Program-made: the position numbers and the translations under genes
From: Bacillota bacterium
GTDB lineage: Bacteria; Bacillota; Desulfitobacteriia; Desulfitobacteriales; JAJXUE01
Assembly: GCA_021811155.1 (NCBI GenBank)
Contig: JAJZPO010000002.1
Location: 6,042-70,041 of the forward strand
DNA: 64,000 nucleotides
Direction: 5' to 3'
The notes under the pieces: model-generated
What the model was told of the DNA's origin: nothing
Seen by the model: only the letters and a program-made list of their open reading frames with translations
Databases searched by the model: none
In this document: piece after piece, positions 2,091 to 30,105 of the stretch
Numbering within the stretch: the stretch's first letter is position 1
Layout: the number at the start of each line of letters is the position of its first letter

Positions 2091-3920
2091 ATGAAAGCAG
2101 AAAATCTACGCAATGTGGCTATAATTGCCCACGTCGATCATGGCAAGACGAGCCTGGTGGACGTGATGTTGAAGCAGAGCGGCGTGTTCCGGGAAAATGA
2201 ACAGGTGATGGAGCGGGTGATGGATTCCAACGAACTGGAGCGGGAACGGGGCATCACCATTCTGGCAAAAAACACCGCTGTCTGGTGGAAGGATGTTAAA
2301 ATCAACATTGTCGACACCCCGGGCCATGCTGATTTTGGCGGCGAGGTAGAGCGGGTGCTTAAGATGGTGGACGGGGTGCTTTTAGTGGTGGACGCCTTTG
2401 AAGGCCCCATGCCCCAGACCAAGTTTGTCCTGCGCAAAGCCTTGGAATTGAATCTGAAACCGGTGGTGGTGATTAACAAAATCGACCGCAGCGACGCCAG
2501 ACCGTATGAAGTAGCAGACGAAGTGCTTGAACTATTCCTGCAGCTCGGCGCCAATGATGAACAGCTGGAATTCCCGGTGGTCTACACCTCTGCCCGCCGG
2601 GGGGTGGCCGGGTTGGAACCCGAAAATCTCAAGCCCAGCCTGGAACCGCTGTTTGAAATGATTCTTGCCACCATTCCGGCGCCTGAGGCTGAGCCTGAGA
2701 AACCGCTGCAGCTTTTGGTGACCACGCTAGATTATGATGATTACCTGGGGAAGGTTGCCATCGGCAGAGTGGTGCGCGGAAAAATCAGCGCTAATCTGCC
2801 AGTGGTGGTAATAAAGCGGGATGAAAGCCAGGAAAAGGCCAGGGTGGTCAAACTGTTTACCTTTAACGGGCTTAACCGGATGGAAACACAGGAGGTCTCA
2901 GCCGGGGAGATTGTGGCCATCAGCGGCATCCCGAATATCAATATCGGCGAAACAGTGACCTGCGCCGTGAACCCGGAAGGACTGCCCGTGATACAGGTCG
3001 ATGAACCCACTTTGACTATGACATTCATGGTCAACAACAGTCCTTTTTCCGGGCAGGAAGGGGAGTATGTGACTTCCCGCAAACTGAGAGAAAGGCTGTT
3101 CAAGGAGCTGGAGACCAACGTCAGCCTAAGAGTGGAAGAAACGGACAGCGCCGAGGCCTTCAAGGTATCTGGGCGCGGAGAGCTGCATTTGTCCATTCTG
3201 ATTGAAACCATGCGCAGGGAAGGATATGAACTGCAAGTCTCGAAACCGGAAGTGATTATTAAGGAAATAGAAGGTGTTAAGTGTGAGCCTGTGGAGTACC
3301 TGACCTGCGATGTGCCCGATTGGGCCGTGGGCGCGGTAATCGAGCGTTTGGGGTCACGTAAGGCGGAAATGGTGAATATGGTCACCTTGACTGGAGGTGT
3401 GACCCGCCTGGAATTTCTGGTACCTGCCCGGGGCCTGATTGGCTTCAGGGGGGAATTCCTGACCGAAACCAGGGGAGAAGGCATCATGTCGCATGTGTTT
3501 CATTCCTACCTCCCCTATAAAGGAGAAATCCAAGGCCGCAACCGGGGTGTGCTGATTGCCTGGGAGAACGGTGAGGCTACCACCTATGCCCTGCACGCGA
3601 TCCAGGACCGCGGGGTGCTGTTTATCGAACCGGGAACAAAGGTGTACGAAGGCATGATTGTAGGAGAAAATTCCCGCGAGCAGGATATCGAAGTAAACGT
3701 GGCCCGCAAGAAGCATGTTACCAATATGCGTTCAAGCACTGCTGAAGAAACCCTGCGCCTGGAGGCGCCGCGCATTCTCAGCCTGGAGCAGGCGCTGGAA
3801 TACATCAACGAGGATGAGTTGGTGGAAATAACGCCCCATAACATTCGTTTGCGCAAGAAATATCTGAGCCGGGATGCCCGGGTGAAATACGAAAAACAAA
3901 AGGTCATGGAGCAAGCGTGA
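2091..3920 (+). CDS. typA: Translational GTPase TypA/BipA
   Basis: [29 protein letters not shown] and NKIDR G-motifs, EF-G-like domains, about 609 aa. ATG 2091 follows a GGAGAG RBS. The longer ORF start at 2046 lies inside the predicted promoter. Confidence 0.93.
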
Positions 3921-4012
3921 AAAGAGCTACATCTTATTTTTCTATGGGCGGCGGAAGCTGCTTAATTTTTTTTGAGGCAGGGAGTATTTTGAAATATTTT
4001 TGCCCCAAGGTG

Positions 4013-4041
4013 TTGACAATAGAAAACGAAAAGCATATATT
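4013..4041 (+). promoter_or_regulatory. Putative sigma-A promoter of the 4.1-8.4 kb cluster
   Basis: TTGACA (4013-4018), 17-nt spacer, TATATT (4036-4041). Confidence 0.5.
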
Positions 4042-4112: not shown

Positions 4113-5420
4113 ATGAGTGCAAATATTATTCACTCCAACGCGGAAAACTTTAAAAAAGATGTTTTGGACTGGGACCAGCCGGTGATTCTAGATTTTTATT
4201 CCGAAGATTGCTCACCCTGTGCGGCCTTGGCCCCAATTTTCGACAAGCTGGCGGAGAAGTACGGGGACAAGATGCGCTTTGTCAAGATTCTAAGGCAGCA
4301 AAACAGGGAACTTGCTCTTAGTTTAGGCGTGAAAAGCAGCCCCACAGTGTTGTTCTTTAATCAGGGCAATGAGGTTGGCGCAAGGTTTAGCGGCTATATC
4401 AAGAAGCCTCAACTGCGTCTGGAAATCGAAAAGATTCTTGGCATTACGCCGGAGAATGTAAAATTGAGTAAGGTGAGCGCCGACGTTCTTGTCCTGGGAG
4501 CCGGTCCGGCCGGTCTGTCCGCTGCCATCTACGCTTCCCGGGCCAGGCTCAATACTGTGGTGATCGACGAGGGTGTACCCGGCGGGCAGGCTGCCACCAC
4601 TTTCCACATCGCGAATTATCCTGGAACCCCCGGCACACTTACAGGTAAACAGCTAATGGAGAACATGCTGGAACAGGCCAAGAGCTTCGGCACCCGGGTG
4701 GATGACTTAAAGGAAGTCATGGAGGTTAACCTGGGAGGAGACCTCAAAACAATTACCACTGAGGACACTGTGTACAGCGCCCCTGTGGTGATTATCGCCA
4801 CAGGTTCGGAATCACGCCGGCTCCCGGTTGAGGGCGAAGCTGATTTCCGCGGCAAGGGCATACACTACTGCGCTACCTGCGACGGGTCAAATTTCGAGGG
4901 CCAAAAGGTTATCGTGGTAGGCGGGGGGAATTCGGCCGTGGAAGAGGCTGTCTTTTTGACCAAGTATGCTTCCCACGTCACCATAGTCCACCAGTTCGAT
5001 AATTTCCAGGCATCCAAGATCGCTCAGGAGGAAGCTCTGGCCAATCCGAAGATCGACGTGGTTTGGAATTCAGAACCGCGTGGTGTGGTGGGTGAAAACC
5101 ATTTGAGCGCGTTGGTGGTGGAAAACGTTAAAACTGGCCAGATGAGTGAGATACCGGTGAACGGAGTGTTCGTCTATATTGGTATGCAGCCCAGGACGGC
5201 TCTGGTAGAGGGACAACTCAACACTAACCAGTGGGGATATATTGAAGTTGACGAAGACTTGAAGACCAACATTCCTGGCGTGTTTGCAGCAGGTGATGTG
5301 CGCTCCAAGATGATCAGACAGGTGGTAACCGCTGCAAGCGACGGAGCTATAGCCGGCATCAACGCTGAGCGCTATCTGGCCAGCCTGCACACCCGTGAGT
5401 ATGCCCAAGCCTCGAAATAG
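4113..5420 (+). CDS. Thioredoxin-domain / thioredoxin-disulfide reductase fusion protein
   Basis: 435 aa. N-terminal Trx fold with a CSPC active site (FYSEDCSPCAAL). After about residue 120, an FAD motif VLVLGAGPAGLSAAIYASR, redox-active CATCDG and NAD(P) motif VVGGGNSAVEEA. AGGAGAGGTG RBS. Confidence 0.9.
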   Translation: MSANIIHSNAENFKKDVLDWDQPVILDFYSEDCSPCAALAPIFDKLAEKYGDKMRFVKILRQQNRELALSLGVKSSPTVLFFNQGNEVGARFSGYIKKPQLRLEIEKILGITPENVKLSKVSADVLVLGAGPAGLSAAIYASRARLNTVVIDEGVPGGQAATTFHIANYPGTPGTLTGKQLMENMLEQAKSFGTRVDDLKEVMEVNLGGDLKTITTEDTVYSAPVVIIATGSESRRLPVEGEADFRGKGIHYCATCDGSNFEGQKVIVVGGGNSAVEEAVFLTKYASHVTIVHQFDNFQASKIAQEEALANPKIDVVWNSEPRGVVGENHLSALVVENVKTGQMSEIPVNGVFVYIGMQPRTALVEGQLNTNQWGYIEVDEDLKTNIPGVFAAGDVRSKMIRQVVTAASDGAIAGINAERYLASLHTREYAQASK

Positions 5421-5531: not shown

Positions 5532-6152
5532 ATGAGTGTTGAGTTAAGCATAATTGAGAGATATACTTCCGAGACGGAGACCGTTAATCTGAGTTGCGGC
5601 GGCAATCTAGACTTTGCGCAGGTGCAGCCAGGGGATGTAATTATCGACCTGGGCTGTGGACGGGGCACTGAAACAATTCTGGCAGCCCGAAAGGCAATGG
5701 AGGGCAAAGCGATTGGTCTGGATATAACTCCTAAGATGGTTCAGGCAGCCAGGGAACAGGCCGCCCTGAAGGGTGTGACCAATGCGGAGTTTGTCGAGGG
5801 CGCCTTGGACAGCTTACCCTTCCCGGACAGCTATGCCGACGTCATGATCAGTAACTGCTCTATAAACCATGTCTCCGATAAGGAAAAGGTATTCAGGGAG
5901 ATCTTCCGGGTTTTGCGGCCCGGCGGCCGGTTTGTTGTCTCGGACATCATGGCCCAGGAACTTCTGCCGGTTGAAATAACCACCGACCCGGAGGAGATTG
6001 CCGCTTGTTTTGGCGGGGCAATTCCGAGCGATGAATATTTTAGGGCAATAAGGAATGCCGGTTTTCTCGAGCTTGAGATTTTAAAGGAACGCAGTTATCT
6101 GAAAAAAGGTTACGGATTGATAAGCCGTACACTCAGGGCATACAAGAAGTGA
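5532..6152 (+). CDS. Class I SAM-dependent methyltransferase, ArsM (arsenite methyltransferase)-like
   Basis: 206 aa. SAM motif VIIDLGCGRGTE, DVMISNCSINHV, LRPGGRFVVSDI and AACFGGA. Cys at positions 22, 109 and 159 are placed like the ArsM thiols. Confidence 0.8.
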   Translation: MSVELSIIERYTSETETVNLSCGGNLDFAQVQPGDVIIDLGCGRGTETILAARKAMEGKAIGLDITPKMVQAAREQAALKGVTNAEFVEGALDSLPFPDSYADVMISNCSINHVSDKEKVFREIFRVLRPGGRFVVSDIMAQELLPVEITTDPEEIAACFGGAIPSDEYFRAIRNAGFLELEILKERSYLKKGYGLISRTLRAYKK

Positions 6153-6166
6153 GAGGAGGTGAGTAT

Positions 6167-6286
6167 ATGCGTCCAGTGACCAGAGAAAGACTGGGAGATG
6201 ACAAGGCTTGCTGCAGCACCGCAGCCTTACAGGTGGCCCAATGCTGCTCCAAGTCCTCAAAAATTATTTCCGGCTGCCACGACTAA
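6167..6286 (+). CDS. Small Cys-rich peptide (39 aa), candidate rSAM substrate/precursor
   Basis: Not in the ORF track (under 60 aa). ATG 6167 lies 7 nt after AGGAGG (6154-6159). Sequence MRPVTRERLGDDKACCSTAALQVAQCCSKSSKIISGCHD, stop TAA 6284-6286. It sits 51 nt upstream of the rSAM/SPASM gene. Confidence 0.6.
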   Translation: MRPVTRERLGDDKACCSTAALQVAQCCSKSSKIISGCHD

Positions 6287-6337
6287 GGTTATATGGCGGT
6301 AGGCTGCCTACCGCCTTGACCTAAATCCAGAAACAGG

Positions 6338-7708
6338 GTGGGGAAGATGTATTACAGCAAGTATAACCTGATTTTGCCTTTGGGCGATTCGCAGTATCCA
6401 TACGCAGTCATGAATTCTCTCAGTGGCGCCTTCGACCTGGCTACCTCTGCCGAGAGAGAAACTTTGCAAAATTTGGCCGAGGGCAAGGCGGCAGAAGGTC
6501 CCGATCTCATAAATTACCTCAAGTCAAGAGGGTATTTATTTGAGAACCGGGCGGAAGAAGATGACCTGGTGCAAACGAAGTTCGTTGAGTTTCAGGACGC
6601 TTTGACAGACACTGCTCCCCAGGTTCTTTTCATCCCCACTTATAACTGCAATTTGGACTGTGTTTATTGTTTTCAAAAAGGGATTAAGCATAAGACTCAA
6701 CTGATAAGCCGGGAGGTGGTTGATGCTTTCTTCACCTACCTGCCTGACTTGTACCCTTTCAAAAAGCCCTTTATCACTCTGTTTGGCGGAGAGCCGCTGG
6801 TGAACTCCCCCAAGCAGAGGGAGATTATTGACTATATTGTCAAGAAAGCGGCTGAGGGTGACTATGAGATTGCCGCTGTGACCAATGGGTATGATTTGAC
6901 TGACTATTTGCCTGTATTGACCCAAACCAGGGTTAAAGAAATCCAGATTACTGTCGACGGTCCCAGGGAACTGCACGATTCCCGCCGCCACACCGCCAAC
7001 GGGAAACCCACCTTTCAACGGATAATGGATGGAATCGGTCACGCCATAGGTCTCGGTATTCCCATAAACTTGAGGGCAGTGGTTGATAAAACAAATTTCG
7101 ACGGGTTGGTGGAATTGGCTGCTGAGTTGGAACGACTTGGTTGGCTTGATCTGCCGGCGGAAAAATTCAAGACCCAGATCGGGCGGAACTATGAATTATT
7201 TGAGTGCTACGCATCCCCGTCTCACTTGTTGGGACAGGTGGAACACTGGGCCAAAGTTGTGGAATTGAGTCAGCAGCATCCTGTGCTAAAGAAATTTCAC
7301 CAGCCGGAATTCAAAGGAATAAAACACCTGGTGCAAAACGGAGAGCTGTATCTGCCGAGCTTTGATACTTGTCCGGCTTGCAAGACGGAGTGGGTGTTCG
7401 ACTTGTATGGCAGCATCTACGGCTGTACCGCGAACACGGGCAGGGATGAATACAAATTGGGTTCTTTTTATCCCGAGTTTGAGTTTAATCAGGTTGAAGT
7501 CGGAGAATGGCAGAAACGCAACGTGTTAAACATCCCCGAATGCCGGGACTGCGATGTAAGCTTGATCTGCGGCGGCGGTTGCGGTGTGGTGGCGAAAGAA
7601 AAGAACGGTGCCGTGCTTTCGCCGGACTGCCGTCCCATTAAGGGAATCCTGGCCCAGGGCTTGAAATATTTCAGAGAGGAGATCCTGGCGCTTAACCAAC
7701 CCGAATAG
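6338..7708 (+). CDS. Radical SAM / SPASM-domain enzyme (peptide-maturase-like architecture)
   Basis: 456 aa. CNLDCVYC (CX3CX2C) after a roughly 95-aa N-terminal extension. SPASM signature CKTEWVFDLYGSIYGC (C-X9-G-X4-C), CRDCDVSLICGGGC (CX2CX5CX3C) and SPDC. The start may be GTG 6338 or ATG 6347. Confidence 0.9.
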   Translation: MGKMYYSKYNLILPLGDSQYPYAVMNSLSGAFDLATSAERETLQNLAEGKAAEGPDLINYLKSRGYLFENRAEEDDLVQTKFVEFQDALTDTAPQVLFIPTYNCNLDCVYCFQKGIKHKTQLISREVVDAFFTYLPDLYPFKKPFITLFGGEPLVNSPKQREIIDYIVKKAAEGDYEIAAVTNGYDLTDYLPVLTQTRVKEIQITVDGPRELHDSRRHTANGKPTFQRIMDGIGHAIGLGIPINLRAVVDKTNFDGLVELAAELERLGWLDLPAEKFKTQIGRNYELFECYASPSHLLGQVEHWAKVVELSQQHPVLKKFHQPEFKGIKHLVQNGELYLPSFDTCPACKTEWVFDLYGSIYGCTANTGRDEYKLGSFYPEFEFNQVEVGEWQKRNVLNIPECRDCDVSLICGGGCGVVAKEKNGAVLSPDCRPIKGILAQGLKYFREEILALNQPE

Positions 7709-7722
7709 AAGGGGGGCCTTTG

Positions 7723-7896
7723 ATGCCGAATTATGACCTGAAATGCTCTGACTGCGGGGAGAAATTTTCAGCGCAGGTGTCAATTAAAGAGAGAGAAGAA
7801 TTGACATGTCCAAAATGCGGCAGCAAAAGTTTAACCCAGGAATCGAAAAATGGTCGCGCCAGGAAAAGACGGTCCAAGAAGCGCTGCTTTACCTGA
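7723..7896 (+). CDS. FmdB-family zinc-ribbon protein (CxxC...CxxC)
   Basis: Not in the ORF track (57 aa). MPNYDLKCSDCGEKF...LTCPKCGSKS matches the MPxYxxxCxxCG...CPxCG pattern. Starts 14 nt after the rSAM stop. Confidence 0.7.
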   Translation: MPNYDLKCSDCGEKFSAQVSIKEREELTCPKCGSKSLTQESKNGRARKRRSKKRCFT

Positions 7897-7953
7897 AGCT
7901 ACTGATTTTTAAAGCCGGCGGCTTTGGGAGTTAGACTGTGAGGAGTGTCGTAT

Positions 7954-8181
7954 ATGTCAGCATTTGTGATAAACAAATTGTGCCGGGGCTGCCAGCGCTG
8001 CGTGCGGGCATGTCCCCAGGGGGCTATTTCCATGGAACTCAGCCTGGCACACGTTGATCCGGATAAATGTACCGAATGCGAGACTTGTATGGAAGTGTGC
8101 ATGCACGGCGCCATTACCATGGCTGAACCCGGAGCGGGTTCAGCCGGGTTAGAAAAAACTCAAATGACTAAGGAGGCCTGA
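7954..8181 (+). CDS. 2x[4Fe-4S] ferredoxin
   Basis: CRGCQRCVRACP and CTECETCMEVC cluster motifs. ATG 7954 lies 8 nt after GAGGAG; the ORF track starts at GTG 7945. Confidence 0.85.
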   Translation: MSAFVINKLCRGCQRCVRACPQGAISMELSLAHVDPDKCTECETCMEVCMHGAITMAEPGAGSAGLEKTQMTKEA

Positions 8182-8183
8182 AC

Positions 8184-8384
8184 ATGAGCGGGGTTGAAGA
8201 GGAGATCAAAAAACTTAAGGAAGAACTGGAAGAACTGATCGAAGAACGCCAATTTACTTTAGGTCAAACCGGTGTTCATATTTCCGCTAAAAAGGTCATC
8301 GCTTTGCGGGAACGCTATGACAGTGAGATTGCTGAGCTGGAACAGAAAATCCGCGAGTTGGGCGGCGTTGTTGAATCCAAGTGA
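8184..8384 (+). CDS. Small coiled-coil protein, function unknown
   Basis: 66 aa, E/K/L heptad-rich. AGGAGG RBS, and the start is 2 nt after the ferredoxin stop (translational coupling). Confidence 0.65.
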   Translation: MSGVEEEIKKLKEELEELIEERQFTLGQTGVHISAKKVIALRERYDSEIAELEQKIRELGGVVESK

Positions 8385-8541: not shown

Positions 8542-9972
8542 GTGAACAGTTTGCTTAAGCAAAGGATGCGTTTCGGAGTCAAAAAAGTGGACGGGTTTGC
8601 CACGGATACTGCCGTCAAACCAGACCAGACCCAGAAAAGTCTGAGCACGGCGGGTCTGGTATGGATTGGGCTGGGGGGTATCATCGGAGCGGGTTTTTTT
8701 CTGGCCTCGGGTTTACCAATCAGTGAAGCTGGACCGGGAGTAATTTTCGCTTACCTGTTGGGTGGGTTACTCATGGCCCAAGTGGGAGGGGCTCTGACCT
8801 CTTTGTCCGTCAGCCATCCGGTAAGAGGATCTTTCCGGGTCTATGCGCAAGAACTCTTGGGACCGTACATGGGGTTTTACCTTGGCTGGGCATTTTGGGT
8901 CTCTTCCATTTTGGCTATCGGTTCCGAGACCACAGCCATGGCGATATTTATCAGGTTGTGGCTGCCAAATGTTCCAGTCTGGCTGCTGACCATCATATTT
9001 TCTGCCATTGTAATTGCGTTAAACGCCTTTGGTGTAAAAAACTTTGGCAAAATTGAGTCCTTGATGTCTGTGGTCAAGGTCTGCGCATTGGCGCTTTTCG
9101 TAGTCCTCGGTATTATGACTTTCGCTGGGTTTGTGCCTGCCACCCGCCCGGTAGGACTGGGAACCCTGCTGGGGAGCGGTGGATTTTTTCCCAAAGGAAT
9201 TGCCGGTTGGTCCGAGTCAATGCTGATTGTAATCTTCGCCTATGGCGGAATCTCGGTTGTTGCGCTGGCCACATCCGAAGTTGAAGATCCAAAGCGCAGT
9301 ATTCCCAGGGCTATGGTGTGGGTGGTTTTGTCCTTGGTCTTTCTCTACATCGCATCACTGGTGGTGGTTATGAGCCTGCTTCCCTGGACTGCCATTACAG
9401 TACAAGAGTCACCCTTTGTTGCTGCCTTGCAAGCGGTTAACCTGCCGGTTTTGCCCTCAATCATGAATGCCATCATTCTTGTGGCAGCATTCTCGGTGAT
9501 GGTGGGAGCCTTTTTCGCAGCGATGACCATGCTGGTCTCACTTGGCGAGGCTCGCGAGGCCCCTGGTTTTGTAACCCGGAAGGGCAGGAACGGAGTGTTT
9601 TACGGCAGTTTGATTGTCACCGGCCTGGGTGTTCTGGCAACCGTTACAGTGTCCTATTTCTTGCCGGCGAAGGTTTATGCCTACTTAACTTCAGCTTCGG
9701 CATATTTTTCCTTCCTGAACTGGGGGACGATTCTGGTGTCATTTTTGGTCTGGCGTAAAAAAAGCGCCGGCGAGGAACGCTATGAATCTCCGCTGGCTTT
9801 CGGGGCCCCTTGGGGGACATGGATCTCCTTAGGGGTGATTGGGGTGCTTTTTATCTATTCCCTGGGGGTACCAGACCAGCGGATGGGATTCTATGCAGCC
9901 TTGGCTTTGACATTGCTGATCAGCGCTGCCTACTCCTTCGTGGCTAAGAACCGCACTTTCAGACCCGATTGA
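8542..9972 (+). CDS. Amino acid permease (APC superfamily)
   Basis: 476 aa, about 12 TM segments. N-terminal GLGGIIGAGFFLASG signature. The start could be GTG 8542 or in-frame TTG 8551. Confidence 0.88.
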   Translation: MNSLLKQRMRFGVKKVDGFATDTAVKPDQTQKSLSTAGLVWIGLGGIIGAGFFLASGLPISEAGPGVIFAYLLGGLLMAQVGGALTSLSVSHPVRGSFRVYAQELLGPYMGFYLGWAFWVSSILAIGSETTAMAIFIRLWLPNVPVWLLTIIFSAIVIALNAFGVKNFGKIESLMSVVKVCALALFVVLGIMTFAGFVPATRPVGLGTLLGSGGFFPKGIAGWSESMLIVIFAYGGISVVALATSEVEDPKRSIPRAMVWVVLSLVFLYIASLVVVMSLLPWTAITVQESPFVAALQAVNLPVLPSIMNAIILVAAFSVMVGAFFAAMTMLVSLGEAREAPGFVTRKGRNGVFYGSLIVTGLGVLATVTVSYFLPAKVYAYLTSASAYFSFLNWGTILVSFLVWRKKSAGEERYESPLAFGAPWGTWISLGVIGVLFIYSLGVPDQRMGFYAALALTLLISAAYSFVAKNRTFRPD

Positions 9973-10299
9973 AGTCTATTTATGTCAGGGTAAGTAGCAA
10001 CAGGAAACAGGCGAAAAAAAGTCACCAAAGGGCAAAATGGTAAAATATTTTCAAATCCGTTAGCTGCATTATGTAAACTGTCAGCCGTTGGGGGGGCAAA
10101 TTTTGCCATTGGCAAAAATTATGTTAGAAGATTCACAATAGTCTGTAAAAATTAAGAAGAAAGGTGGTGATTGCTTTTTAATAATTTGCAGGGTCTGACC
10201 GGGCAATCTTTTAAGGCGGGCGCCTCCGAGGCGCCGGGACGGAACTGTTAGGAGACCGGTACTGCCTAAGGACCGGAACTGAAAAAGGGAGGGATTCTT

Positions 10300-10626
10300 T
10301 TGACAGAAGGAAAGAAAACAATCGCCTACAAAGATTTACCGCCACTCGACCCCGATACGGCTGTGACAATGAATGAAGAGGTCAACATCAGTATTGTTTT
10401 GACTATTATCTATTATGTTTTTCTGCTGGCGGTCACCATTCTCAATTGGACCGCCCCGGGTTTGATGAAAACCTTGTTGTGGGGCGGGATGTCCCTTACA
10501 TGGTTTGCAACCTCGCTTTTTGCCTTGTTTATGGCCTTTGCCATAGCCGCGCTCCATGTCTATTTTTACCACAAACGGTTTAACAGGCAGGTTTTGATGC
10601 AAAATTCGAAAGGACAGGGGGTGTAG
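10300..10626 (+). CDS. DUF485 (YjcH-like) small membrane protein partnered with an acetate-type symporter
   Basis: 108 aa, two TM helices, ends in a YFYHKRFN-type motif. Sits 4 nt upstream of an ActP-like symporter. TTG start after GGGAGGG. Confidence 0.7.
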   Translation: MTEGKKTIAYKDLPPLDPDTAVTMNEEVNISIVLTIIYYVFLLAVTILNWTAPGLMKTLLWGGMSLTWFATSLFALFMAFAIAALHVYFYHKRFNRQVLMQNSKGQGV

Positions 10627-29856: not shown

Positions 29857-30011
29857 CGTAAAGAGGGACCGTTCAGCATTATCTAAACTATTTGTTTATA
29901 AAATGGTTGAATATTTGGACTTTAAGTATTAGAATTAAGCTAACATTTATTTACTTATATAATAACCTTTGCTAAACGACGCTTAATCATCCCTTAAAAA
30001 TAAAAAATAAT

Positions 30012-30105
30012 CTGTCAAAGGCAAAACGTCTGAAAGGACGTGACGCAAAGCTATGGGTCTAAAGCAATTGGATTGCTAGGATTGCCAGGCTACCGGAGAA
30101 TAGCG
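30012..30105 (+). promoter_or_regulatory. c-di-GMP-I (GEMM-I) riboswitch aptamer
   Basis: GGCAAAACGUCU-GAAA-GGACGU-GACGCAAAGCUAUGGGUCUAAAGCAAUUG...GGCUACCGGAG aligns with the conserved GGCAAAC..GAAA..GACGCAAAGC..GG.CUAAA core of the Vc2-type aptamer as I recall it. Confidence 0.8.

Follow-up and report, generated by a model that had tools for sequence, protein, structure and literature searches.

A conserved cysteine-rich peptide gene associated with a radical SAM/SPASM enzyme and an ArsM-like methyltransferase in anaerobic bacteria

On contig JAJZPO010000002.1 of a Bacillota bacterium, a short open reading frame (ORF) lies between a gene for an ArsM-like S-adenosylmethionine (SAM) methyltransferase and one for a radical SAM (rSAM)/SPASM enzyme, which raises the question of whether it is a gene at all and, if so, what its product does beside two such enzymes. 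The stretch analysed (64,000 nucleotides, hereafter the window; all window features given below are on its forward strand) had been read once before, and that original prediction proposed an unlisted 39-residue ORF with regularly spaced cysteines, separated from the rSAM gene by a stem-loop. Comparison with related sequences indicates that the ORF is almost certainly a real gene. The reading favoured here, to which a probability of roughly 0.55 is given, is that its product would be an rSAM-tailored, intracellular thiol peptide that partners the methyltransferase and a thioredoxin-thioredoxin reductase (Trx-TrxR) fusion.

The peptide gene and its conservation

The basic elements of the locus can all be read in the sequence as originally described. 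The gene (6167..6286) extends from an ATG at 6167-6169 to a TAA at 6284-6286 and is preceded, 7 nt 5' of the ATG, by the Shine-Dalgarno sequence AGGAGG (6154..6159), which itself follows the TGA (6150-6152) of the upstream methyltransferase ORF; a 9-bp hairpin (6295-6315) lies beyond its stop codon. The mechanical ORF list of the window enters the same frame as a GTG-extended ORF of 45 residues (6149..6286). The product read from the window, MRPVTRERLGDDKACCSTAALQVAQCCSKSSKIISGCHD (39 aa), has cysteines at positions C15, C16, C26, C27 and C37, and is made up of a leader-like MRPVT, a lineage-specific CC at 15-16 and an invariant C-terminal core, AQCCSKSSKIISGCHD (DNA 6236-6283). No second copy of the peptide was found in the 64-kb window.

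From an alignment of rSAM homologues, by which 525 relatives were confirmed in total, 80 related loci were fetched as contigs of one genome per species (L001-L080; '81 sequences' denotes these loci plus the window). A tblastn search with the 39-aa query, the check that had been proposed for a small ORF beside rSAM homologues, detected a peptide homologue in 76 of the 80 loci, in each case on the strand that encodes the rSAM enzyme; in the remaining four (L021, L043, L060 and L061) the contig begins inside the rSAM gene or at most 131 nt before it. The peptide gene is directly 5' of the rSAM gene in ~72 loci and within 3 kb of it in the rest of the 76. The loci that bear it belong to Bacillota, Spirochaetota, Bacteroidota, Myxococcota, Ignavibacteria and Acidobacteriota (counted as six phyla). 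Absence or frame disruption of the ORF in orthologous loci, named earlier as the outcome that would speak against it, was not encountered: the ORF is intact, with a Shine-Dalgarno sequence and under purifying selection, in every locus having upstream sequence.

The conservation is that of a translated sequence. A regular-expression scan for the core, xQCC[S/A]K-x6-GCH[D/N]-stop, returned 80 occurrences in 77 of the 81 sequences; at the DNA level 73 distinct versions are present, and these encode 32 different peptide cores. For codon positions 1, 2 and 3 of the core, the column entropies average 0.46, 0.20 and 1.42 bits, respectively, a pattern that indicates purifying selection on the protein. 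Furthermore, GGAGG-type ribosome-binding sites are found at the same distance 5' of nearly all orthologous copies. A chance ORF, or a non-coding spacer between two genes, would have in its favour the small size of the frame only, yet the frame, the start context, the stop position and the amino-acid sequence are all kept while third positions are free; the comparative data thus exclude that explanation, with a negligible residual probability.

The same family emerges from protein collections. The exact peptide of the window has been called by gene callers on at least 12 public contigs, and a profile built from 40 family members retrieved 1,445 clusters (90% identity) from a collection of 5.8 billion proteins; the 120 clusters listed are all stand-alone proteins of 31-52 aa, unnamed or annotated as 'hypothetical protein'. 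All of the 156 family members that were fetched terminate exactly with the core. A phmmer search with the single peptide against 1.84 billion representative proteins gave seven small peptides, one repeat protein as a spurious match and no fusion of the peptide to a larger protein, and a word-index search with the 45-aa ORF matched one protein.

Across the family (window numbering), M1, Q25, C26, C27, K29, G36, C37 and H38 are invariant, A24 and S31 are nearly so, and the final residue is D or N. The N-terminus reads M-[K/R]-x-[V/I/L]-[T/S], after which comes a stretch that is basic but variable, a conserved motif that agrees with the leader-like N-terminus originally suspected. The cysteine pattern fared less well. 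CC-x9-CC-x9-C holds for the window sequence, and its C-terminal CC-x9-C is conserved; the double x9 periodicity is not family-wide, as the spacing between the upstream CC and the core CC among the 156 fetched peptides is 7 (65 peptides), 8 (30), 9 (22) or 10 (10) residues, and the upstream Cys is absent from 25 of them, which makes the upstream pair (C15, C16) lineage-specific. The cysteine feature common to the family is therefore CC-x9-C at the C-terminus. No core variant with selenocysteine (an in-frame TGA) was seen in the 80 loci. The window peptide, four homologues and 41 members gave nothing significant in Pfam or NCBIfam, even at E <= 10, although the NCBIfam model VcpD ('ArsD-related vicinal cysteine protein') yielded weak, non-significant matches in 5 of the 41 peptides (best E 0.13). 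Neither the peptide sequence nor its profile matched PDB sequences, and the peptide contains no recognizable leader cleavage motif.

The sequence between the peptide and rSAM genes is likewise structured. In the window a GC-rich hairpin (6287..6321) is predicted, with an inner 9-bp stem formed by GGCGGTAGG (6295-6303) and CCTACCGCC (6307-6315) around a CTG loop, and with five outer pairs that join 6287-6291 to 6317-6321. The 63-nt spacer (6284-6346) has a minimum free energy of -25.6 kcal/mol (z = -3.0 compared with dinucleotide-shuffled sequences; an equally good fold was reached by 2 of 200 shuffles). The lack of a T-run after the stem-loop, pointed out earlier, was confirmed (the tail is TAAATCCAG); the hairpin was not reported in a consensus terminator scan and lacks the U-run of a Rho-independent terminator. 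A stable hairpin at this place, as originally proposed for the window, recurs in most loci: the spacers of 69 loci have a median z of -3.57, with 81% below -2 (mononucleotide shuffles), and in 65 of 80 copies there is one individual hairpin with an energy of -10 kcal/mol or lower that starts a median of 7 nt past the stop codon. These orthologous hairpins have a median of -17.1 kcal/mol and ~11 pairs, and their stem sequences are unrelated between lineages, thus it is the structure that is conserved. At least five T follow within the next 9 nt in 17 of 80 copies and at least four in 33 of 80, so that the hairpin ranges from terminator-like to T-less across loci. On the simplest reading it would act as a leaky terminator or a 3'-end stabilizer and give a high ratio of peptide to enzyme transcript.

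The rSAM enzyme and its partner genes

The gene that follows the hairpin (6347..7708) starts with an ATG at 6347, has an in-frame GTG at 6338, and encodes a 453-aa rSAM/SPASM enzyme with an N-terminal RRE-like domain (Pfam Radical_SAM and Fer4_12). The CX3CX2C motif is formed by C101, C105 and C108, and the SPASM set is complete (C287, C342-x12-G355-x4-C360, C399-x2-C402-x5-C408-x3-C412 and C428); these cysteines of both motifs are invariant in 17 diverse homologues. The nearest NCBIfam families are all peptide maturases, namely CefB (149 bits; cut-off 600), TIGR04463 (127 bits), PapB (116 bits), TIGR03974 SCIFF (85.9 bits; cut-off 425) and QhpD (61 bits; cut-off 453); as every one of these scores is far below its cut-off, the rSAM family is not a curated one. 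In the AlphaFold2 model (mean predicted local distance difference test (pLDDT) 84; predicted template modelling score (pTM) 0.85), a three-strand/three-helix domain with pLDDT of ~90 precedes the TIM barrel. A Foldseek search with this model ranked CteB (5WGG) highest, with a match along the whole chain, ahead of anSME, SuiB and ChlB, and CteB is also the only significant sequence match in PDB.

As modelled, this architecture matches that of enzymes which bind the leader of a peptide and cross-link its core. The arrangement had originally been likened to that of a precursor and its maturase, and the RRE-rSAM-SPASM architecture of the neighbour is the one found in peptide maturases. With good confidence, then, the peptide is judged likely to be the substrate (precursor) of the adjacent RRE-rSAM-SPASM enzyme.

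Upstream of the peptide, the gene at 5532..6152 encodes the 206-aa ArsM-like SAM methyltransferase (202.7 bits against NCBIfam PRK11873; cut-off 263), a compact enzyme that has neither the N-terminal Cys segment nor the C-terminal domain found in canonical ArsM. Its C22, C109 and C159 align with C72, C174 and C224 of CmArsM, the As(III)-binding cysteines of ArsM, and the equivalents of all three are invariant in 75 of 75 orthologues. The suggestion that the vicinal cysteines of the peptide might serve as ligands for As(III) or another soft metal is consistent with this invariant ArsM-type triad of its neighbour.

The third enzyme (4113..5420; 435 aa) is a thioredoxin (CSPC) fused to a thioredoxin reductase (CATC), which matches NCBIfam TIGR01292 with 360 bits (cut-off 343) as well as Pfam Thioredoxin and Pyr_redox_2. 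A homologue is present in the cluster in ~70 of the 80 loci, upstream or downstream. Its thioredoxin half has CxPC in 69 of 69 (46 CPPC, 16 CAPC and 4 CSPC) and its reductase half has CATC in 62 of 69, motifs by which both halves are predicted to be redox-competent. The thioredoxin domain (window 4113-4457) and its orthologues carry CPPC, CAPC or CSPC, not the canonical CGPC, and its position N-terminal to the reductase is the reverse of that in NTRC-type fusions.

Mapping of the window proteins onto the loci revealed a nearly constant set of five components: the ArsM-like methyltransferase, the peptide, the rSAM/SPASM enzyme, DUF5714 and the Trx-TrxR fusion, among which the methyltransferase is always present and DUF5714 often. 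DUF5714 (PF18978), a Cys/His-rich domain of ~230 aa, is fused to or adjoins the rSAM enzyme in most Clostridia. Its sole family-level relative is the NCBIfam 'metal-binding double selenoprotein MbdU' (141 bits), and no solved structural relative of it was found. The domain carries a vicinal 'CCKR' motif of its own and is absent from the 64-kb window; examples in L010-L061 are L016 7414-8058 and residues ~495-714 of P0090.

Gene order within the set is variable. Trx-TrxR is upstream in the window (4113-5420) and downstream in most other lineages, and the methyltransferase gene follows DUF5714 in L010 and L011. Anaeromyxobacter-type loci have two peptide paralogues, neither of which adjoins the rSAM gene, one being directly upstream of Trx-TrxR and the other ~2.5-3 kb beyond the rSAM gene. 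Linkage that is kept despite such reshuffling argues for functional coupling. All-against-all clustering of the flanking ORFs disclosed no further conserved partner, and in a Pfam census of the 148 nearest-neighbour ORFs no family occurred more than four times (ArsP_1 4, Nitro_FeMo-Co 4, MFS 3, CCG 3 and desulfoferrodoxin 3). Neither of the two analyses found a conserved peptidase, immunity gene or exporter of the type that accompanies ribosomally synthesized and post-translationally modified peptides (RiPPs).

Paralogue positions in the Anaeromyxobacter-type clusters are 3451-3525 and 9699-9773 (L069), 2988-3062 and 10389-10463 (L073), 2991-3065 and 10000-10098 (L078), and 4819-4893 (L079). 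In L069, L073 and L078 the peptide has been relocated beside Trx. These clusters also hold an extra thioredoxin and a DUF6125 protein.

A correlation between the peptide and the methyltransferase was also considered. A CC shortly before the invariant Cys of the LSCG motif is present in the methyltransferase in 10 of the 14 loci whose peptide lacks the upstream CC, versus 6 of the 57 whose peptide has it. The ten loci (L062-L065, L067, L068, L070, L071, L077 and L080; CC ~10 residues before the LSCG Cys) could suggest that the upstream CC of the peptide replaces, in trans, an N-terminal CC of the methyltransferase. This idea was set aside: all ten form one Spirochaetota/Bacteroidota/Ignavibacteria clade in a neighbour-joining tree of the rSAM proteins, so that the complementarity rests on one or two independent events and is a lead rather than evidence. 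In addition, L074 and L076 have neither CC, which implies that the extra CC is dispensable.

Proposed role of the peptide and competing explanations

In the mechanism that we propose, the short basic N-terminus (M-K/R-x-h-T) would be the recognition element for the rSAM enzyme, which would modify the invariant C-terminal 16 residues, xQCC[S/A]K-x6-GCH[D/N]. By analogy with CteB, PapB and QhpD, the likeliest modification may be at least one intramolecular Cys thioether bridge, with the terminal Asp/Asn (beta-CH2 next to a carbonyl) and Gln25 as candidate acceptors. The hairpin, as a partial terminator or a 3' stabilizer, would keep the peptide mRNA above that of the maturase. As the conserved set includes no exporter, protease or immunity gene, the product is presumed to be intracellular, that is, retained in the cell and not an exported antibiotic. 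There it may be a dedicated thiol-rich partner of the ArsM-like enzyme, either as the carrier of a thiophilic substrate or as a redox mediator accepting the disulfide that arises in turnover. Thioredoxin is the disulfide reductant for ArsM/AS3MT, and the Trx-TrxR fusion would re-reduce the cysteines of the peptide, of the methyltransferase or of both after each turnover. Peptide and methyltransferase would thus cooperate on a thiophilic substrate, be it a metalloid or a sulfur or selenium compound. That the chemistry of the system concerns a metalloid in particular is a tentative proposal, somewhat more doubtful than not.

Several observations weigh against this proposal. The core is far more strictly conserved than ordinary RiPP cores, so that the peptide could also act unmodified. 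The rSAM enzyme is below all curated maturase cut-offs (best, CefB with 149 of 600 bits), thus its chemistry is not transferable by homology. The methyltransferase reaches 202.7 bits against PRK11873, below the cut-off of 263, and covers profile positions 59-235 of 272; the fourth, N-terminal Cys of ArsM (C44) has no counterpart in the window enzyme, and its equivalent is absent in 34 of the 75 orthologues, with C or CC in the rest. Neither ArsR nor Acr3 nor ArsC was among the neighbours in the 148-ORF census, and the four Anaeromyxobacter-type loci have the peptide gene elsewhere than beside the rSAM gene.

Alternatively, the peptide might be an unmodified metal(loid)-binding protein or chaperone, ArsD- or metallothionein-like, whose CC...C passes As(III), Sb(III) or a soft metal to the methyltransferase, while the rSAM enzyme acts elsewhere, for example on a small molecule or on the methyltransferase. 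The metalloid site of ArsD is formed by C12, C13 and C18, which the invariant CC-x9-C resembles, and the whole core is kept, as in a folded binding module. The As(III)-site cysteines retained in the methyltransferase and the relation of DUF5714 to MbdU (141 bits) would also fit, and so would the VcpD matches in 5 of 41 peptides, were these (best E 0.13) significant. Such a role would, however, leave an RRE-SPASM enzyme without a substrate, although an RRE-like domain and SPASM are typical of peptide-modifying enzymes and the peptide lies directly upstream in ~72 loci; moreover, no ars operon genes are linked. It is considered unlikely. Less likely again, the peptide could be the source from which a small cofactor or a low-molecular-weight thiol is made, as happens with the precursor peptides of pyrroloquinoline quinone (PQQ) and mycofactocin. 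The rSAM enzyme would then cross-link the C-terminal C-H-D/N (for example through a C-S bond between Cys and His, which would yield a thiohistidine), the remaining peptide would be discarded, the methyltransferase would methylate the product and Trx-TrxR would keep it reduced. The C-terminal G-C-H-[D/N] is indeed invariant, and conservation between phyla is at the level of a cofactor precursor; that the peptide strictly accompanies a methyltransferase and a reductase, with no exporter, suits a cytoplasmic metabolite, and desulfoferrodoxin next door in several carriers hints at oxidative stress. But no peptidase is conserved in or beside the cluster, conservation extends to all 16 residues of the core, the distant QCC among them, rather than to the C-terminal tripeptide alone, the methyltransferase is specifically ArsM-like with metalloid-binding cysteines, and no precedent was found for such rSAM chemistry.

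That the peptide is an ordinary exported sactipeptide or ranthipeptide with an antimicrobial or signalling function is what a small Cys-rich ORF beside a SPASM maturase, with a hairpin between both genes, would first bring to mind. A core nearly identical across six phyla, the lack of a conserved transporter, protease or immunity gene and of a recognizable leader cleavage motif, and the constant linkage to the methyltransferase and Trx-TrxR make this very improbable. The tailored intracellular thiol peptide remains the favoured reading. A fuller form of it, judged improbable, is a hitherto unrecognized form of ArsM-type chemistry on a genetically encoded carrier, in which the rSAM-tailored CC...C would hold As, Sb, Se, Te or a persulfide, the truncated ArsM-like enzyme would methylate it and Trx-TrxR would reset the thiols. 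In its extreme version, the rSAM enzyme would forge a carbon-metalloid or Cys-His bond, and the result would be an organo-metalloid or thiohistidine peptide cofactor of many strict anaerobes.

Comparison with described systems places the peptide, as a probable member, among the Cys-rich peptides tailored by rSAM/SPASM enzymes. SCIFF (ScfA/CteA with ScfB/CteB) is likewise a small (~35-45 aa) Cys-rich peptide with an unusually conserved C-terminal half, encoded beside an RRE-rSAM-SPASM gene in anaerobic Bacillota with no obvious exporter, and CteB is the nearest enzyme by sequence and by fold. However, our peptide does not match the SCIFF model TIGR03973 and its rSAM enzyme scores 85.9 bits against a TIGR03974 cut-off of 425; the peptide here has three invariant cysteines and a GCH[D/N] end, and SCIFF loci do not include the methyltransferase and Trx-TrxR that are obligatory in this system. 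In quinohaemoprotein amine dehydrogenase, the small Cys-rich QhpC receives Cys-to-Asp/Glu thioethers from QhpD, which is an rSAM enzyme of the SPASM type. As a tailored polypeptide that serves as an enzyme subunit or cofactor carrier and not as a natural product, QhpC is the best functional precedent, yet it is larger and periplasmic and carries a quinone cofactor, whereas the partner here is an ArsM-like methyltransferase and the rSAM enzyme reaches 61 bits against the QhpD cut-off of 453. The ranthipeptides (PapA/PapB, NxxcA/NxxcB) and the Cys-every-fifth system (CefB) supply the best family-level matches of the rSAM enzyme, and their Cys donors near Asp/Asn acceptors recall the terminal C-H-D/N of the peptide; the known cores are repetitive or variable, in contrast to the single, almost invariant core found here, and the scores are far below the cut-offs. 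A ranthi- or sactipeptide-type thioether in the peptide is suggested by the class of the enzyme.

On the side of the partner, the methyltransferase shares with ArsM/AS3MT the equivalents of C72, C174 and C224, and a dedicated Trx-TrxR matches the need of ArsM for a disulfide reductant. It differs in its length (206 aa versus ~270-380 aa), in a score below the family cut-off and in the missing N-terminal Cys in the window, and, unlike canonical arsM, its gene is never linked to ars resistance genes and always to the peptide and rSAM genes. With ArsD and VcpD, the peptide has in common two vicinal cysteines and a third one, which together might form an S3 site that binds trivalent metalloids, but the similarity to VcpD is not significant (E 0.13) and ArsD is a folded protein of 120 aa that works with the ArsA ATPase. 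The peptide is thus probably of the rSAM/SPASM-tailored Cys-rich kind, but its partner set and its cofactor-like conservation match no described class. No description of the peptide or of the gene set was found in a full-text search; subscription literature lies outside its coverage, and a prior mention there is possible.

Wider neighbourhood and significance

Judged from the window sequence, the operon probably begins with the Trx-TrxR gene, since a promoter-like site (TTGACA-17-TATATT, 11 of 12 consensus positions; 4013..4041; found by a consensus scan only) lies 3' of a terminator-like hairpin of typA (3945-3964). An Rfam scan found neither a riboswitch nor another known RNA near the operon; a full-length c-di-GMP-I riboswitch aptamer at window 30010-30097 (+) (Rfam RF01051, 82 bits) is unrelated to the peptide module. 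Downstream of the rSAM gene are genes for an FmdB-type zinc-ribbon protein (7720..7896; 58 aa), found there only in the window's own clade (L001, L003, L007-L009 and L059), for a 2x[4Fe-4S] ferredoxin (7945..8181; 78 aa), which is downstream in the window's clade (L001-L009), and for a charged helical protein (8184..8384; 66 aa) shared with the closest relatives only (L001 and L002). In the clade of L001-L009 and the window, which is without DUF5714, the FmdB, ferredoxin and 66-aa genes follow the rSAM gene instead. This set may be a functional replacement for DUF5714 or an electron donor, and the ferredoxin could supply electrons to the rSAM enzyme.

Certain neighbours recur outside the window's clade. 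Desulfoferrodoxin (superoxide reductase) is encoded directly 3' of Trx-TrxR in L023, L027, L029-L031, L042, L045 and L051, at ~9.5 kb (for example, L045 9517-9906), which hints at a connection with oxidative stress. A split ArsP_1-type (PF03773) permease pair adjoins the module in L014, L025, L046, L047, L049 (3947-4956), L052 and L053; full-length ArsP_1 is among the commonest neighbours, yet accounts for only 4 of the 148 ORFs.

The peptide represents a large unnamed family of small proteins, with at least 1,445 sequence clusters and an rSAM partner in at least 525 species-level genomes. Its genes form a self-contained module (peptide, rSAM/SPASM enzyme, ArsM-like methyltransferase, Trx-TrxR and often DUF5714) over six phyla of anaerobes, by which a concrete context is gained for DUF5714 and MbdU-like proteins. 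For research on rSAM enzymes and RiPPs, it would offer a new and very tractable substrate-enzyme pair, with a peptide of 31-40 aa and an invariant core of 16 residues. The peptide appears to be a tailored peptide of a housekeeping type and not an antibiotic. Furthermore, many of the genes that are scored as 'arsM-like' in metagenomes of anaerobes may belong to this peptide-dependent system, the substrate of which may not be arsenite.

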